36,018 nt of DNA, taken from the UHGV virus genome UHGV-1420163. One strand, written 5' to 3'. The notes under the pieces are model-generated. The model was not told where the DNA came from. It saw only the letters and a program-made list of their open reading frames with translations, and did no database searches. This document shows positions 27,481 through 34,655 of the stretch, piece by piece (the stretch's first letter is position 1; each line of letters starts with the position of its first letter). Position numbers and translations under genes: made by a program. The DNA is from a virus.

Positions 27481-28857
27481 TCATACGTCAGCCCCTTGTG
27501 CATATCGTCTGCCACGCGCAGCAGGTGCATTTGATGTTGTGCAAATCTGTCTGGCTTCATCCTGGTCACATGCAACAAAGTGTCCGTTGCAGAACCGCTG
27601 GTAAACCGTACCAAGCGAGCCAAAACGGTTTTTCGTCACGATGATTTCAGCAAATGGCGCGGCGCTACTGTTCTCGTCATATACCGCCTCCCGATAGAGC
27701 ATGATGATTGAGTCTGCGTCCTGTTCAATGCTTCCTGAATCACGCAAATCTGCGTTTGTCGGGCGTTTGTTTGGTCGCTTTTCAACATCGCGCGAAAGCT
27801 GACTCAGGGAGATAACCGGTGTTTTCAGGTCTTTCGCCATCGCCTTCAGGCTTCCGGAGATGTGGGCAATTGCGAGGTCGTTGCGGTCTGCTTTCGGCTT
27901 CTCAATCAGGCCAAGATAATCCGCCATGATGAGTGAGAGGTTTGGATTTTCCTGTTTGTGCCGTTCTGCGATTGAGCGTATTTCTTCGACCGATAATCGC
28001 GAGGCATCGACTACCCATACATCCAAATCTGCAAGCTGACTCATGCCGTTAGCAACGCGCGCCCAGCCTTCGTCATCCATCGCTGCAGGATTTCGCAGCA
28101 CACTAACCGACATCCTCCCGGCGTTGGCAATGCTTCGCTCTGCAATCTGCAATGCGCTCATTTCCATTGAGAAAATCAATACCCCGCGCCGGACGTCAGA
28201 ACCAGGAATAACGCGGCTTGCAACGCCTTCGGCAATCTTCAGCGCCAGTTCGGTTTTCCCCATACCAGGACGAGCAGCGATTATCACCAGGTCTTCCGCG
28301 TTCATCCCTCCGGTGATGGCATCAAGTTCTTCGATTCCGGTCTTCAGGGTATCTGACTCTTCTCCGTTCCTCAGACGCCTGTCAAGCGTGTCAGTGTAGT
28401 CAGTAATGATTTCCCCTAACCGTACAGGTTTTAACTCGTCACGGGGCTTTCTGATGGCTGAGAGACGCTTTACAAGCTCGTCCATCGCCTGACTCGATGT
28501 ATCGATGGTTCCGCTCTGAATTGGTTCACGCATTTCATCCATGATTTCCAGCACCAGACGGCGGTGATAGTTATCCGCGACCATTCCGGCATACCCCTTC
28601 AGGTTTGCGGCACTCGGGCAGTTTTTGCTGGTCATCAGGATTGACGTGAAATGCTCCTCTCCGCACGCCTCGGCAACCATCAGCGCGTCGATTAGGTTTC
28701 TGTTTCTCGCCTGCTTCCGGATAACCTCGAAGGCTTTCCGGTAGAGCGGAATTGAAAACGCTTCCGGCTCCAGCGTTGCCAGAACGTCACTGGCAGTTGG
28801 TGTTAATCCACCAATCAGCAGGCCACCGATAACGCTCGCTTCGATATCCTGTCTCAT
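27481..28857 (-). CDS. Replicative DNA helicase, DnaB family (458 aa)
   Basis: Walker A GMGKTE, DnaB-like C-terminal motifs, position after the O-like gene. Confidence 0.9.
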
Positions 28858-29675
28858 GCAATCCCCCTGTCTGCAAACTTCCCTTCCCGAACTCCCGTTA
28901 ACGAGTCTTCCCTCAGCAGGTAATCAAAATCTGCCGTCCAGCCCGTGTCGTTGTCTCCGAAGTAAAACGGCTTGGCCTGATGCACAAACGCCCTGACATA
29001 CGCTCTGAAACCGTCCACGTTTGGCGTTTTCAGTTGCGGAATGATTTTCTTCAGGCGACGTTTGCGTTTCTCGTTGACCGCAACAGCGTGTGGCAGTCTG
29101 TCACCGACTTCGGTGTTGTAGGCGTTCAGGAAGGATTCATAGTCGATTCGTTCTGCCTTGCGACGTTCAGGTTTAACCTGCCCATCGCCGCCCCCGTTAG
29201 GGGGTAAGGGGGTATTTGTATTTATTGTCTTTTGTATATTGTCTTTTGTGTTTAGCTGACTTGGCTTATACCCATTAGCCGACTTGGCTAATGTTTTATT
29301 AGCTGTTTTAGCTAATGTTAAGCTGTCCTGGCTAATCCACTGAGAAACCACCTTGTTCACTCCGATTTTCACGCCATCAGCAATGAGGAATTTACGCTCG
29401 ATAAGCTGGCGCTTGGCAGCGCAAACATGAGTGTGATGAATACCTGTCATGGCTGCTATCTGCGTGTTTGTGAGTCGATCCATCGGCTTATTGAATCCGT
29501 ATGTCTTGCGCATGATAGCGAGCATCACCTTCATCTGCCGGACGGTTAAATCAGCCATCAGCAGACTGTCGGTAATCTCGTTAGCAACGCGCATGAAACC
29601 ATCTTCGGTATCTGCCACGCGATGCTCCACGACCTCCAGTTGAGGCCTGTAATCAGCTAACTTAACGACGCCCAT
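28854..29675 (-). CDS. Replication initiation protein, O-like (273 aa)
   Basis: Position upstream of the helicase; ori iterons inside the coding sequence. Confidence 0.8.
29215..29340. repeat. Origin iterons inside the O-like gene
   Basis: TTGTCTTTTGT at 29225-29235 and 29239-29249; AGCTGACTTGGCT / AGCCGACTTGGCT / AGCTGTCCTGGCT repeats. Confidence 0.6.
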
Positions 29676-29823
29676 GTTTCACTCCTGCTTTGGCTAGTCT
29701 GTAAACACCAACAAGGCGTTCTGCGAACGCCCTGTTATTTGCTGCGGCTACCACTAATCCCTCAGGTGAATCAGGGTGTCGAATCTCTTCTTTTTCCTGG
29801 TATTTCTTACGACGTTTTGTCAT
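29662..29823 (-). CDS. Small basic hypothetical protein (53 aa) between cII and O; below the track's size cut-off
   Basis: Hand translation MTKRRKKYQEKEEIRHPD...; AGGAG 7 nt upstream of ATG 29823. Confidence 0.35.
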   Translation of the reverse strand: MTKRRKKYQEKEEIRHPDSPEGLVVAAANNRAFAERLVGVYRLAKAGVKHGRR

Positions 29824-29855
29824 AATTACTCCTGTGGATTGATCCAGTAATTCCC

Positions 29856-30152
29856 TCAGAATTGCATATCAATTTGCTTAAAATCCTCGGTGGCGGCCGG
29901 GGATTTTTTCTTTGTGATTTCATCAAGCGCATACTTAAAAGCCCTGCTAATCGGACTGATGTCTGATGCCATTCCAAAAGCACACAAGACCGAAGCAATA
30001 AATCTCCAGTCCGTTCTGCTTATCTTCGATTCATGACAGCCAATCATCTTTGCCAGACCGCGCTGGGTAAGCGTTGACAGGTTGATGAGTAAATCAGTTT
30101 CAGCGCGATCAATTTCTCGCTGTGTTGGCTTGCTGTAACTTGCTTGTGTCAT
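29856..30152 (-). CDS. cII: CII-like lysogeny activator (98 aa)
   Basis: ESKISRTDWRF and C-terminal KKKSPAATEDFKQIDMQF parallel recalled lambda CII. Confidence 0.8.
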   Translation of the reverse strand: MTQASYSKPTQREIDRAETDLLINLSTLTQRGLAKMIGCHESKISRTDWRFIASVLCAFGMASDISPISRAFKYALDEITKKKSPAATEDFKQIDMQF

Positions 30153-30273
30153 TTCTTACTATCTCCATAGGTAAATAATTTGTGTTTTTATCGTGCACCA
30201 TTGACAGTCATCCTTGACCACGCCGGGCACCCGACCGTATACCGGGCCGTTCGGTACTGAAAGTACATTTTTA

Positions 30274-30504
30274 TTACATGACAAACTGCTGTTTACCGAT
30301 ACGGCGAATCTGTGCTGCTGAGTACTTGCCGCCTGATGCCTTGGCGATCTTATCCGCATATTCGGTTTCACCAGTGAACTCGGTGCGCGGCAGAGAACCA
30401 CGCTCAAGCCACTTATAGATGGCTTTTGGCGTAAGTCCACAAACATCAGCCACAACAGAAACTCGAACGGATTTGATAACTTCTGCAAACGTAACTTCGT
30501 TCAT
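30274..30504 (-). CDS. cro: Cro-like repressor (76 aa)
   Basis: HTH-bearing small protein divergent from cI; AGGAGAG RBS; operator directly upstream. Confidence 0.8.
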   Translation of the reverse strand: MNEVTFAEVIKSVRVSVVADVCGLTPKAIYKWLERGSLPRTEFTGETEYADKIAKASGGKYSAAQIRRIGKQQFVM

Positions 30505-30519
30505 GCTTCTCTCCTGTGG

Positions 30520-30591
30520 TGAACTTATGGTTCATATTATGACGGAACTGATAGTACAGTCAATACCTAATATAGTTGAACTTATGGTTCA
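30520..30591. promoter_or_regulatory. Right operator/promoter region: two identical palindromic operators flanking divergent promoters
   Basis: TGAACTTATGGTTCA at 30520-30534 and 30577-30591; TAATAT -10-like element at 30568-30573 would give a leaderless cI transcript. Confidence 0.7.
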
Positions 30592-31291
30592 ACAGAAAGA
30601 GCGTGAAACTTTCTCGCAGAGGCTTGCGCTGGCCTGTGATAAAGCGGGATTACCTTTGCATGGTAGGCAGGCTGATTTAGCTGTCAGGCTTAAGGTCACA
30701 CCAAAAGCCATTAGTAAATGGTTCAACGGGGAGTCAATACCAAGAAAAGACAAGATGGAATCTTTGGCTTCGGTGCTGGGAACCACTGCGGCATATCTGC
30801 ATGGCTATGCTGATGATGACGGTATCACGGTAAATCATCTATCAAGATCAAATGATTCTTATCGTGTTGATGTATTGGATGTTCAGGCGAGCGCCGGGCC
30901 AGGAACCATGGTTTCCAATGAATTTATAGAAAAGATAAGAGCAATTGAATATACGACCGAGCAGGCAAGAATTTTATTTAATGGAAGGCCACAGGAAAGC
31001 GTAAAAGTCATCACGGTTCGCGGTGACAGCATGGAGGGAACCATCAATCCGGGAGATGAGATCTTTGTTGATGTATCCATAACCTGTTTTGATGGCGATG
31101 GCATTTATGTGTTTGTATACGGGAAAACAATGCACGTTAAGCGCCTGCAAATGCAAAAGAACAGGCTTGCCGTCATCTCTGACAATGCCGCTTATGATCG
31201 ATGGTACATAGAAGAAGGTGAAGAAGAGCAACTTCACATTCTAGCCAAAGTCCTCATTAGGCAGTCAATCGATTACAAGCGATTCGGATAA
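30584..31291 (+). CDS. cI: CI-type prophage repressor, HTH plus S24 peptidase domain (235 aa from ATG 30584)
   Basis: N-terminal HTH (VTPKAISKWFNGES), C-terminal GDSM...K autocleavage motifs; ATG lies within the second operator. Confidence 0.9.
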   Translation: MVQQKERETFSQRLALACDKAGLPLHGRQADLAVRLKVTPKAISKWFNGESIPRKDKMESLASVLGTTAAYLHGYADDDGITVNHLSRSNDSYRVDVLDVQASAGPGTMVSNEFIEKIRAIEYTTEQARILFNGRPQESVKVITVRGDSMEGTINPGDEIFVDVSITCFDGDGIYVFVYGKTMHVKRLQMQKNRLAVISDNAAYDRWYIEEGEEEQLHILAKVLIRQSIDYKRFG

Positions 31292-31299
31292 AAATAAAT

Positions 31300-31400
31300 T
31301 TCCTTAAAGTTCACTAACTTATGATGTAGTGAGCTTTTTATACCCATAAAATGTACTATTGGTACTTTACATTAATGAACTTTAAGTACATCATAAGCCC
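31300..31400. promoter_or_regulatory. Putative left operator/promoter region
   Basis: TGAACTTTAAGTACA at about 31375-31389 resembles the OR operator with one mismatch; boundaries approximate. Confidence 0.4.
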
Positions 31401-31552
31401 ATAGACGAACGGCGCGTCTTTAAACCATGCGTCGGGAGCGCGGCGGGTTCAGGATGAACGGCAATGCTGCTCATTAGCGAGAAGGCTTTTTTGCTTTTAG
31501 TCACAAAAAGCAAAGCAGCTTTTTGATATAGAAAAAGAAAAAGGAGGCTGAT

Positions 31553-31996
31553 TTGAAGAGTGCTACAGTTTACACGGCAATGAGAGTTAAGCAATATGGC
31601 GGCGTACCTTCGGTAGAGGTAAGGTGTGATGATAAAAGAACCAAAGTTGTTACTGATTGCCTTCTGCTTTTTAAAAGCATAGATGAGGTAATTTTTATTG
31701 GCGCTGAAAATCTTCACCCTTTGATAAAAGCAGAGATGAAGCAATGTGCAATCGATGCATTGGGAGTTGGGCAAGGCAAGTCTCAGATCGAAGCAAAGCA
31801 AATGCTTACAGAGCTTGAAAGCAGCAGACGTAGACAAGCAAGCAGGGCAAGACAATTTCACGATGCGATCGCAGGATGGAGCAGAGAGCTTATGTCTTTA
31901 AATGTAGACATACAGAGAGGAATTGATATTCCAACAATAAGGTCAAGAATAGGTACGATCGCAGAGAACATGGAAAAGCTAAATCCAAAGAAATAA
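31553..31996 (+). CDS. Hypothetical protein in the N-gene slot (147 aa, TTG start)
   Basis: AAGGAGG RBS 6 nt upstream; first gene after the left operators; followed by an intrinsic terminator. Confidence 0.55.
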   Translation: MKSATVYTAMRVKQYGGVPSVEVRCDDKRTKVVTDCLLLFKSIDEVIFIGAENLHPLIKAEMKQCAIDALGVGQGKSQIEAKQMLTELESSRRRQASRARQFHDAIAGWSRELMSLNVDIQRGIDIPTIRSRIGTIAENMEKLNPKK

Positions 31997-31998
31997 TA

Positions 31999-32020
31999 AC
32001 CCGCTAAGGCGGGTTTTTTA
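31999..32020 (+). terminator. Intrinsic terminator after the N-slot gene
   Basis: ACCCGC-TAAG-GCGGGT hairpin followed by TTTTTT. Confidence 0.7.
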
Positions 32021-32131
32021 TTACATAAATAACCGTATTTACTACCGCAAGCCACGCAGTGAAATGGGTGTGACTTGTGTTGGTCGCCAGAAAATGAAAT
32101 TAGGCAGCAAACCACTTATTTGAGGTGAGAT

Positions 32132-32320
32132 ATGGAACGTAAATTTGAAATTTGGTTGGATTCCGGCGCAAACATTCATTCTTGCAAAAAGACAGTTGTA
32201 ACACTCGATGATCTTGGCTTATCCGAGAATGAGTGGAATGAAATGGATCAGGACGAAAAAGACGAAAACATGCGTGATGTAGCATTTGAAACGCTTGATT
32301 GGGGATGGAAGGAAATTTAA
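32132..32320 (+). CDS. Hypothetical small acidic protein (62 aa)
   Basis: GAGGTGAG RBS; strongly acidic C-terminal half. Confidence 0.55.
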   Translation: MERKFEIWLDSGANIHSCKKTVVTLDDLGLSENEWNEMDQDEKDENMRDVAFETLDWGWKEI

Positions 32321-32372
32321 GTGATGGCCGCATAGTCGGCCTTTATTTTTGGCATAAACAACAGAGGCTAAC

Positions 32373-32663
32373 ATGGAATTTAAAGGTACTGAAGGTAAGT
32401 GGGAAATAATGATGGATGGCGATGAGATTAAAATCATCCAGGCAGACTCACTTGAAAATGGCGCAGGCTGGCGTTCGTATATTGCAATCTGTGAGGAAGT
32501 TCAATGCATTGAAGATGCCAATCTAATAGCGGCAGCACCAGACCTTTTAAATGCCATGCAAGCGATGCTAAACAAGGCATACAAGCAAAAATGGAATGAC
32601 CATTATCCTGATGAAGTATCGAAAGCACTGTCAGCAATCAGCAAGGCTCTGGGAGGTGAATGA
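32373..32663 (+). CDS. Hypothetical protein (96 aa)
   Basis: GAGG RBS 6 nt upstream; ATGA overlap with the next gene. Confidence 0.55.
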   Translation: MEFKGTEGKWEIMMDGDEIKIIQADSLENGAGWRSYIAICEEVQCIEDANLIAAAPDLLNAMQAMLNKAYKQKWNDHYPDEVSKALSAISKALGGE

Positions 32664-32863
32664 TGTGCGAGTTTTATGAAGCAGATATCAAACGCCCAGA
32701 AATGGCAAGTGATGCGACATTACGTGATTACTTCGCGGCAAAGGCTATGCAAGCAATGATTAGCAATCCATCGATTATCGATAATGATTCTGATGGAGCT
32801 GTTAATTATGCAGCAAGCGCTGCATATAAGTTTGCAGACGCAATGCTCAAAGCTCGCGAATAA
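32660..32863 (+). CDS. Hypothetical protein (67 aa)
   Basis: Start overlaps the preceding stop; followed by a 9-bp-arm hairpin. Confidence 0.5.
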   Translation: MMCEFYEADIKRPEMASDATLRDYFAAKAMQAMISNPSIIDNDSDGAVNYAASAAYKFADAMLKARE

Positions 32864-32958
32864 GCACTGTGTATTCATTCCAACGAGTGAATACACGGAG
32901 CAATGTCGCTCGTAACTAAACAGGAGCCGACTTGTTCTGATTATTGGAAATCTTCTTT

Positions 32959-32982
32959 GCCCTCCAGTGTGAGGGCTTTTTT
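32959..32982 (+). terminator. Intrinsic terminator upstream of cIII
   Basis: GCCCTC-CAGTGT-GAGGGC followed by TTTTTT. Confidence 0.65.
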
Positions 32983-33048
32983 ATATGCATACCAATAACG
33001 CTTCACTCGAGGCGTTTTCGTTATGCAATCAAACAGAAGGAGCATCCT

Positions 33049-33219
33049 ATGCAACAGTTCGCTATTGCAGGGGCGGCATCGGTTCGCCCTTTCAACCCGA
33101 TTTTATCGGTACAGCATTCACGAAAAAATATTTTAACCGGAGCAGACTTTAAACAACCAAGAATGAAAAGCTTGCTCGAAAAGCTTTGGGATATTTTGAA
33201 ACAACAAGGCCGTCCATGA
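33049..33219 (+). CDS. cIII: CIII-like FtsH inhibitor (56 aa from ATG 33049)
   Basis: MQQFAIAG...SLLEKLWDILKQQGRP parallels recalled lambda CIII; AGGAG RBS. Confidence 0.7.
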   Translation: MQQFAIAGAASVRPFNPILSVQHSRKNILTGADFKQPRMKSLLEKLWDILKQQGRP

Positions 33220-33374
33220 GTTTTACAGATAACTGGTCAGACGAAGAATTCATTCGTCAGATGAAAGAATTAATCGGTAACGAAGGAGATATTCATGTCA
33301 CTTGCAACCACAGTGAAGGAGAGCAAGTTACAGAGACGCATGTACACGCAGAAAGCTCTCTGGTATCGCCATAA
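33216..33374 (+). CDS. Hypothetical small protein (52 aa), kil-position
   Basis: ATGA overlap with the cIII stop; no recognisable family. Confidence 0.4.
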   Translation: MSFTDNWSDEEFIRQMKELIGNEGDIHVTCNHSEGEQVTETHVHAESSLVSP

Positions 33375-33473
33375 TGGTGACCGCGAAGGAATGCGGGTAT
33401 GCCTTAATTTGTCACGAGTCGAAGTATTAAATCAGCGTTATTTCCTTGGGCCGTGTCCATTCTGAGGTGAATT

Positions 33474-34181
33474 ATGGATTTGAACAAATTCGATGAGCCA
33501 TTCAGCCCTGAAGATATCGAATGGCGAATACAGCAAAGCGGTAAAACACGCGATGGCAAGGTATGGGCTATGGTGCTGGCTTATGTAACGAACAGGGCAA
33601 TCATGAAACGCCTGGACGATGTTTGTGGCAAAGCAGGATGGCGCAATGAATACCGCGATATTCCCAACAACGGCGGAGTTGAATGCGGCATATCAATAAA
33701 GATTGATTCCGAATGGGTAACCAAATGGGATGCTGCTGAAAACACGCAGGTAGAAGCCGTCAAAGGTGGTCGTTCCGGTGCAATGAAGCGCGCTGCCGTT
33801 CAGTGGGGAATCGGTCGGTATCTGTATAACATTGAGGAAGGTTTCGCACAAACATCTCTCGATAAAAAGCAGGGATGGCACAGGGCAAAACTCAAGGATG
33901 GAACAGGATTTTACTGGCTCCCTCCATCGCTGCCGGGATGGGCAATCCCAGCATCAGATAACAAACCATCACCAGAAAATACCAACCAGAAATCTCCATC
34001 GGTTGACTGCGAGCAAATCCTGAAAGACTTCAGCGATTATGCGTCGACAGAAACTGACAAGAAAAAACTCATCGAACGTTATCAGCATGACTGGCAATTA
34101 ATGGCTGGCAATGAGGATGCGCAGGCTAAATGCGTTCAGGTAATGAACATCAGAGTTAACGAACTAAAACAGGCGGCATAA
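33474..34181 (+). CDS. Single-strand annealing protein: Rad52-like N-domain with Erf-type C-terminal tail (235 aa)
   Basis: C-terminal FSDYASTETDKKKLIERYQHDWQLMAGNEDAQAKCVQVMNIRVNELKQAA matches recalled P22 Erf C-terminus; N-terminal half does not. Confidence 0.8.
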   Translation: MDLNKFDEPFSPEDIEWRIQQSGKTRDGKVWAMVLAYVTNRAIMKRLDDVCGKAGWRNEYRDIPNNGGVECGISIKIDSEWVTKWDAAENTQVEAVKGGRSGAMKRAAVQWGIGRYLYNIEEGFAQTSLDKKQGWHRAKLKDGTGFYWLPPSLPGWAIPASDNKPSPENTNQKSPSVDCEQILKDFSDYASTETDKKKLIERYQHDWQLMAGNEDAQAKCVQVMNIRVNELKQAA

Positions 34182-34655
34182 ATGGCAAGCAGAGGCGTAA
34201 ATAAGGTGATCATTATTGGTCGCCTTGGGCATGATCCAGAAATCAGATATTCACCATCAGGAACGGCATTTGCAAACCTTACAGTTGCTACGTCAGAACA
34301 ATGGCGTGATAAGCAAACTGGAGAGCAAAAGGAGCAGACGGAGTGGCACCGCGTGGTAATGAGCGGAAAACTGGCAGAAATTGCCAGCGAATATCTGCGA
34401 AAAGGCTCTGAGGTTTATCTTGAAGGAAAATTGCGGACAAGAAAATGGCAGGATCAAAGCGGACAGGATCGGTTCACTACCGAAGTCATCGTGGGCGTTG
34501 GTGGAACCATGCAAATGCTTGGTGGCAAGCAAGGAGGCAATGAACAGTCTTCACCTCAGCGAAATAACGGTCAGCAACAAAGACAGCAACCTCATCAGCA
34601 GGGAAATCACAGAGAACCACCTATGAACTTCGACGATTCGGATATTCCGTTCTAG
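34182..34655 (+). CDS. ssb: Single-stranded DNA-binding protein
   Basis: OB-fold N-terminus, Gly/Gln-rich linker, C-terminal DDSDIPF. Confidence 0.95.

Follow-up and report, generated by a model that had tools for sequence, protein, structure and literature searches.

Which element makes early transcription resistant to termination in a phage whose N position is filled by a gene unlike N, and what might that gene do instead? The question is raised by a viral genome of 36,018 nucleotides (UHGV-1420163; 'the window' below means this whole stretch at its full length), in which a sequence-only reading had noticed a 147-aa protein in the slot of lambda N or P22 gene 24 and had left the choice between a non-canonical antiterminator and an unrelated immunity-region function. 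Our analysis makes it very likely that put RNAs antiterminate here and that the 147-aa ORF is not an antiterminator, and assigns the window to a P22-like E. coli phage or prophage with the immunity/early-control module of HK022.

The segment 29816-31533 is 99.1-100% identical to phages HK022, O276 and HK75, and spans cII, putR, cro, cI, oL/pL and putL: the whole of it is 99.1% identical to O276, which has HK022 immunity, and 31200-31533 is 100% identical to HK022. Coordinates of its features were transferred from the curated annotations of O276 and HK75 and from the original HK022 record:

29856-30152, minus strand: cII gene (HK022 type) of the early-right operon; an ORF, annotated as cII in O276 and HK75
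about 30188-30260, minus strand: putR antiterminator RNA, between cro and cII; annotated as putR in O276 and HK75
30274-30504, minus strand: cro gene (HK022 type); within the HK022-identical stretch, from the O276/HK022 annotation
30584-31291, plus strand: cI repressor gene (HK022 type, 235 aa); mapped from O276 and HK75, 3' end 100% identical to HK022
31306-31343, plus strand: hairpin and U run after cI, overlapping the oL region; fold of 31292-31365, -14.7 kcal/mol, z -2.76
31366-31401, plus strand: pL promoter, with -35 TTTACA (31366-31371), -10 CATCAT (31389-31394) and start at 31401; from the promoter scan and the HK022 pL mapped from O276
31402-31474, plus strand: putL antiterminator RNA, two stem-loops; 100% identical to HK022 putL, annotated in O276 and HK75
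31475-31533, plus strand: AT-rich leader common to HK022; identity to HK022 stops at 31533, the left mosaic junction

We infer a terminator function for the hairpin at 31306-31343, probably for the repressor transcript. With +1 set at 31401, the window reproduces the residue numbering of the putL cryo-EM study, including A3-G7:C15-U19, the -10-like AACCAU at +23 to +28 and U68 (PMC9378689). By blastn, putR is 100% identical to HK022/O276 over 71 nt (core motif at 30199-30253), and the put core motif occurs at exactly two sites in the window, putL and putR, with 0 expected by chance. The long structured leader described in the sequence-only reading is thereby recognised as HK022 putL, whose minimum-energy fold consists of two stem-loops, but its folding energy alone is not unusual (leader z -0.04 to -0.66); since the folding energies of putL and putR are no different from those of shuffled sequence, the put identification rests on sequence identity and not on thermodynamics. 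An Rfam scan (E ≤ 1, 28500-33500) gave no match at putL or putR.

HK022 has no N-like factor and depends solely on its put RNAs; bound to the zinc-binding domain of β' in RNA polymerase, these suppress both pausing and termination with no protein factor (PMC9378689). The window phage carries a complete put antitermination system of this type, and its identity to that of HK022 suggests that it functions likewise. The nut-like elements that were to be sought in the leader and the cro-cII interval did not turn up there: the positions expected for nut sites, downstream of pL and pR, are taken by putL and putR instead, and boxA-like matches are about as many as chance would give (20 vs 16.5 expected), the only one in the leader lying inside putL stem II. 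As HK022 put RNA antitermination is a known mechanism, most of the surprise of an N slot without N is removed.

Comparison with related phages also bears on the put RNAs themselves. In putL of Wanchaivirus PDP110P2 (L007:3350-3422) and of Erwinia phage phiEt88 (L006:3345-3417), A3:U19 and A5:U17 of HK022 and the window are both changed to U:A. These double changes are natural compensatory pairs supporting the 5' duplex of the cryo-EM structure, which is absent from the older two-stem model. At several loci (L006, L010, L023, L050, L059 and L062), put elements are 93-100% identical while the adjacent 147-aa genes are only 60-66% identical, in hosts that include E. coli, Cronobacter and Erwinia; relative to flanking coding sequence, the conservation of put RNA is extreme. 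These data add P22-like phages of E. coli, as well as phages of Cronobacter and Erwinia, to the known range of put elements. Within the window, the virion half (1-25000) is P22-like: over 68% of these first 25 kb it matches phage IME10 at 97% identity. Its union with the immunity of HK022, whose heads and tails are HK97-like, makes a clear inter-group mosaic.

The 147-aa gene and its immediate surroundings follow directly on the left mosaic junction:

31541-31547, plus strand: strong ribosome-binding site AAGGAGG, 5 nt 5' of the TTG; read from the sequence
31553-31996, plus strand: 147-aa gene, TTG start; phrog_13686; first ORF after oL/pL
31998-32021, plus strand: intrinsic terminator, AACCCGC-TAAG-GCGGGTT followed by TTTTTT; 7-bp stem with 5 G-C pairs, z -4.7
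32031-32123, plus strand: relic of a phage-21-type N gene, its last 30 codons and stop (NRIYYRKPRSEMGVTCVGRQKMKLGSKPLI, then the stop); no start codon, no arginine-rich motif

The main descriptive points of the sequence-only reading are borne out here: a 147-codon ORF with a TTG start is the first gene after the left operators, it is followed by a strong terminator, and its product lacks an N-terminal arginine-rich motif. The TTG is also the start chosen by PGAP, the NCBI annotation pipeline, in E. coli genomes, and it is supported by the presence of TTG, ATG or GTG at the homologous position in other phages and by the conservation of residues 2-9. A search of 5.8 billion protein clusters gave 15 clusters (at 90% identity) that are 63-99% identical to the 147-aa protein, all from Enterobacteriaceae or their phages; ten have a called length of 147 aa and the other lengths reflect alternative start choice or truncation. 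A 177-aa call in Cronobacter, which overlaps putL, was set aside as over-extension by the gene caller, and 138-aa calls as a matter of start-codon choice, since those loci also have a start codon where the homologous 147-aa ORF begins.

Against ten homologues, pN was 0.06-0.25 and pS 0.67-0.86, with synonymous sites largely saturated; in the three comparisons with a computable dS, dN/dS was 0.04-0.13. The length of 147 aa is kept down to 60% identity, and 55 residues are invariant in an alignment of 16 sequences. The ORF is thus a real protein-coding gene under strong purifying selection. One IMG/VR copy (L060:3001-3445), whose protein is 99% identical over the aligned part, measures 445 nt vs 444 and is frameshifted, either as a pseudogene or through a sequencing error. 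The GC content of the gene is 41%, compared to 48.6% for the whole window and 39-45% for neighbouring early genes; of the features of a moron with its own cassette, the family gene has the terminator, and no promoter was detected and its GC content is near that of its neighbours.

The protein (16.5 kDa, pI 9.4) starts with MKSATVYTAMRVKQYGG, a predicted beta strand with no arginine-rich motif, and ends in EKLNPKK; its sole arginine-rich stretch is RRRQASRARQ at R92-Q101. This stretch lies in the best-conserved segment of the family, residues 87-116, with the pattern ESSRxRQASRARQF. AlphaFold2 modelled the protein with pLDDT 84.6 as a four-stranded antiparallel beta sheet (residues 5-49) followed by helices 56-72, 76-121 and 126-143, the 46-residue middle helix bearing the invariant E87-L116 segment with its arginines. 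Database searches returned little else. There was no Pfam match at E ≤ 1 and nothing significant in NCBIfam, PADLOC or PDB sequences; the PHROGs match, phrog_13686, is to a family without assigned function; and a profile search over 1.84 billion cluster representatives gave four matches, with no distant relative among them that would inform function, so that the family is very narrow. With the model as query, nothing was found in BFVD at E ≤ 0.001, and fold searches yielded generic matches only. A literature search by accession numbers of family members found no paper, and the epsilon34 genome paper had no bearing on put.

Neither is the protein a hidden relative of N or Nun: in hhalign, its family aligned to an alignment of eight N proteins with a probability of 0.05% and to Nun with 0.17%, and phmmer gave no Nun match either. 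We also translated the whole 36 kb in six frames and searched the product with an HMM made from eight N sequences and, using phmmer, with every N and Nun sequence; apart from the N relic, no N- or Nun-like ORF came up. The one match paired phage 21 N with the frame that covers 31983-32120 (phmmer, E 2.3e-15). At 28 of its 30 residues the relic agrees with the 3' end of phage 21 N, to which its DNA is 98% identical, and PGAP labels the homologous stretch of E. coli strain 317 as the pseudogene 'antitermination protein N, missing N-terminus'. Because this 3' relic follows the 147-aa gene, the slot is historically that of N, from which the 5' two-thirds of N and its nutL have been displaced. Truncated N relics whose match to the N profile is confined to its C-terminal part lie 3' of the family gene in at least 12 further loci, many of them unrelated. 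These 5'-truncated relics are found just beyond the gene's terminator, 26-390 nt downstream of the gene (L005, L012-L014, L018, L019, L051, L053, L055-L057 and L062), and some are called as ORFs of 81-84 aa. They could persist as recombination linkers, as translation signals for the next gene or for a residual function. In the window, the next gene (32132-32320) encodes a very acidic 62-aa protein and has its ribosome-binding site inside the end of the relic; a second terminator-like hairpin (32326-32349, GGCCGC-ATAGTC-GGCC and a T run) comes after it.

The N relic bears out the assignment to an N slot, but the closer positional analogue is nun of HK022. Beyond 31533, just before the ribosome-binding site of the ORF, where identity ends, HK022 continues into the nun promoter and then nun. 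The terminator at 31998-32021, the first of the early-left operon, recurs behind HK022 nun as AACCCGC-TCAG-GCGGGTT, and a hairpin much like it, GCCCAC-TTCG-GTGGGT, whose stem is compensated, follows nun in mEp235, a phage in which nun is 2 nt behind the N gene and the same phage-21-type N relic comes after the nun terminator. Because the HK022 left flank, the nun terminator element and the mEp235 N relic are common to both genes, nun and the 147-aa gene are alternative occupants of one slot, which is bounded on the left by an antitermination device (putL here, N elsewhere) and on the right by the conserved terminator. A sub-threshold Rfam match to STnc370 (31988-32039, minus strand, 32 bits vs a gathering score of 54, E 0.16) was dismissed as a generic terminator hairpin; read along the minus strand, the hairpin at 31998-32021 likewise scores as terminator-like.

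We compared 54 loci with a family member, drawn from the window, phage records, E. coli genomes, metagenomic contigs and IMG/VR contigs and classified by script, with N counted as full length when the profile was covered end to end and Pfam PF25694 scored above threshold. putL was upstream of the family gene in 25 of the 54, at 72-427 nt (mostly 72-121) and in most cases together with putR, and a full-length N gene was upstream in 29, at 5-94 nt, the shortest gaps to N in other phages being 5-19 nt. No locus had both putL and N upstream, and none had neither. Put-type and N-type settings are interleaved in protein similarity space: the protein of L046 (put) is 99.3% identical to that of L018 (N), and that of L050 (put) 95% identical to that of L057 (N). 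Given near-identical proteins in both settings and the 25/29 split, the gene is neither a replacement of N nor a specific partner of put. It has instead been exchanged repeatedly between put-type and N-type early regions, entering the same position each time. A strong terminator follows the family gene in nearly all loci, and it is the same element in most homologous ones. Among 5,426 complete E. coli genomes, about 21 carry the module of putL and gene.

A metagenomic 98-aa protein, P0018 (L027:1195-1491), has a lambda-N-like N-terminus (MNAQERRRERRK...NPTLVGV, with a Pfam N36 match) fused in frame to about residues 49-107 of a divergent family member, and probably arose by deletion between adjacent N and family genes. 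The related P0017 (L028:3225-3545, 106 aa) is without the C-terminal helices and has a 3' N relic upstream. In Salmonella prophages L008 (2092-3015) and L009 (1879-2898), both with the family gene, defence-type genes are held in the space from repressor to N, one encoding a BstA_C-domain protein and the other an AAA_31/CbiA ATPase; the two show the cI-to-N neighbourhood to be a hotspot of accessory genes.

How the region would work can be pictured from its likeness to HK022. putL, made from pL, and putR, made from pR, would act in cis on RNA polymerase with no need for an N protein: a polymerase starting at pL would transcribe putL, become termination-resistant, pass the 31998 terminator and enter the recombination genes, among them:

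33474-34181: Erf/Rad52-like recombination gene
34182-34655: ssb gene

The 147-aa ORF, as first gene of the pL transcript, would be made at the very start of infection or induction, before the first terminator, as a separate, exchangeable accessory gene that is dispensable for antitermination and sits in the slot that HK022 fills with nun. A promoter scan found no sigma-70-like promoter between pL and the ORF, using a simple consensus that weak or non-sigma-70 promoters would escape. In view of this, of the gaps of only 5-19 nt to N elsewhere and of the terminator-like hairpin after cI, we infer that the gene is expressed from pL only. Readthrough of the cI transcript was set aside as a route to expression in lysogens, given that hairpin. 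Nun-like expression of the 147-aa gene in lysogens may nevertheless come from a promoter of the kind that the scan would miss.

As to function, the choice left by the sequence-only reading falls on the side of an unrelated immunity-region function, which is supported by the lack of homology to N, the coexistence with N and the presence in both settings. It had also named as a refutation an N-like gene elsewhere in the phage, with the ORF assigned to another family; homologues directly behind a true full-length N in 29 related loci come very near to this, but the window itself has no intact N. The idea of a non-canonical antiterminator, or of an essential cofactor of put or N antitermination, we regard as highly improbable. 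It can draw on the finding that the family gene comes right after the antitermination device at each of the 54 loci, on the internal arginine-rich helix and on P0018, in which a lambda-N-like arginine-rich motif is joined to the middle of a family member, but this fusion has the look of neighbouring genes joined by deletion in a decaying prophage. Moreover, HK022 put works with RNA polymerase alone (PMC9378689), HK022 does not have the 147-aa gene, and putL and putR of the window are identical to those of HK022. Homologues coexist with complete N genes at 29 loci, proteins that are 95-99% identical in N and put settings are hard to square with a specific cofactor, and a family so rare (four matches among 1.84 billion representatives) contrasts with how common put-type and N-type phages are. 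Just as improbable is a selfish or neutral passenger, or a decaying recombination remnant of the N region, as might be suspected of an ORF that lies between mosaic junctions, adjoins an N pseudogene and belongs to a narrow family with one frameshifted copy (L060). A passenger or remnant would not be expected to keep its length of 147 aa down to 60% identity, a pN of 0.06-0.25 with saturated synonymous sites, 55 invariant residues among 16 sequences and a conserved ribosome-binding site and terminator, nor to be predicted so confidently in structure (pLDDT 84.6).

An exclusion factor of the Nun kind, whose arginine-rich helix would bind nut or put RNA or the RNA polymerase of rival lambdoid phages and block their early transcription, is quite unlikely, although it has the exact slot of nun in its favour, with the HK022 left flank, the mEp235 nun terminator element and the N relic. 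The best-conserved segment of the 147-aa protein is just this arginine-rich helix, and nun too is found in both put-type and N-type phages. A common slot in mosaic phage genomes is, however, no evidence for a common function, and the protein does not resemble Nun in sequence, is without an N-terminal arginine-rich motif and, ending in LNPKK, has no C-terminal aromatic residue of the Nun type; nor was a promoter for expression in lysogens found, whereas nun has its own, annotated in O276. We lean, tentatively and with rather less than even confidence, towards an early conflict function (anti-defence, host takeover or exclusion) exerted by binding of protein or nucleic acid through the conserved helix, because the slot is common with an exclusion gene, the region is that of early-left accessory genes, the distribution is patchy and the protein is small. 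It may be a small basic binder or inhibitor, probably oligomeric. The strict placement behind an antitermination device could also reflect a functional link to transcription elongation and not only early expression, and the conserved internal arginine-rich helix (87-116) could bind RNA. That the protein is a new immediate-early effector, its position itself under selection, which acts through helix 87-116 on the transcription machinery or nascent RNA, is an unlikely extension of these points. If so, it might shield the early transcription complexes of its own phage against exclusion systems such as Nun, or sabotage those of competitors. Turning back to the early conflict function, the fixed position at 54 of 54 loci despite repeated moves between N-type and put-type regions is unusual for mosaic lambdoid genomes, and this constancy makes the gene a reasonable candidate for anti-defence or exclusion.

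Set against known systems, the window is closest to the HK022 put system. putL and putR are 100% identical and in the same positions (just after pL and in the cro-cII interval), cI, cro, cII and operators are the same, and neither phage has an N gene. The two differ in the gene behind putL, which is nun in HK022 and the 147-aa gene in the window, in the virion genes, which are P22-like (IME10-like) in the window vs HK97-like, and in the phage-21-type N relic of the window. With Nun itself, the 147-aa protein shares small size (112 aa for Nun) and its gene the slot directly behind putL (HK022) or N (mEp235), the same terminator element (AACCCGC-N4-GCGGGTT) and, in mEp235, the N relic; unlike Nun, to which it shows no sequence similarity, it has an internal arginine stretch, no C-terminal tryptophan motif, no separate promoter that could be detected and a predicted fold of a beta sheet and three helices. 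Like the N genes of lambda, phage 21 and P22 (PF25694, PF11438), the 147-aa gene is the first of the pL operon, upstream of the first terminator and at a former N site. It differs from them in lacking homology and the N-terminal arginine motif, in belonging to a phage without nut sites and in having homologues that coexist with true N; the PF25694 profile recognises the N genes beside these homologues yet not the 147-aa protein, and N proteins are largely disordered whereas the 147-aa protein is predicted to be folded.

The early-left accessory region of lambdoid phages is known for anti-restriction and exclusion functions. With its accessory genes or morons (ral, sieB, P22 gene 17 and rexAB), the 147-aa gene has in common that it is small, exchangeable, flanked by mosaic junctions, provided with its own terminator and present in a minority of related phages, and it differs in having no detected promoter of its own and one fixed position in all 54 loci. 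Altogether, the antitermination system of the window is one already known, identical to that of HK022. The ORF, itself uncharacterised, falls into the known class of early-left accessory genes that are exchangeable, and is unusual in the strict constancy of its position; it represents a small, well-conserved family, without detectable relatives, that behaves as an alternative to nun in the same slot.
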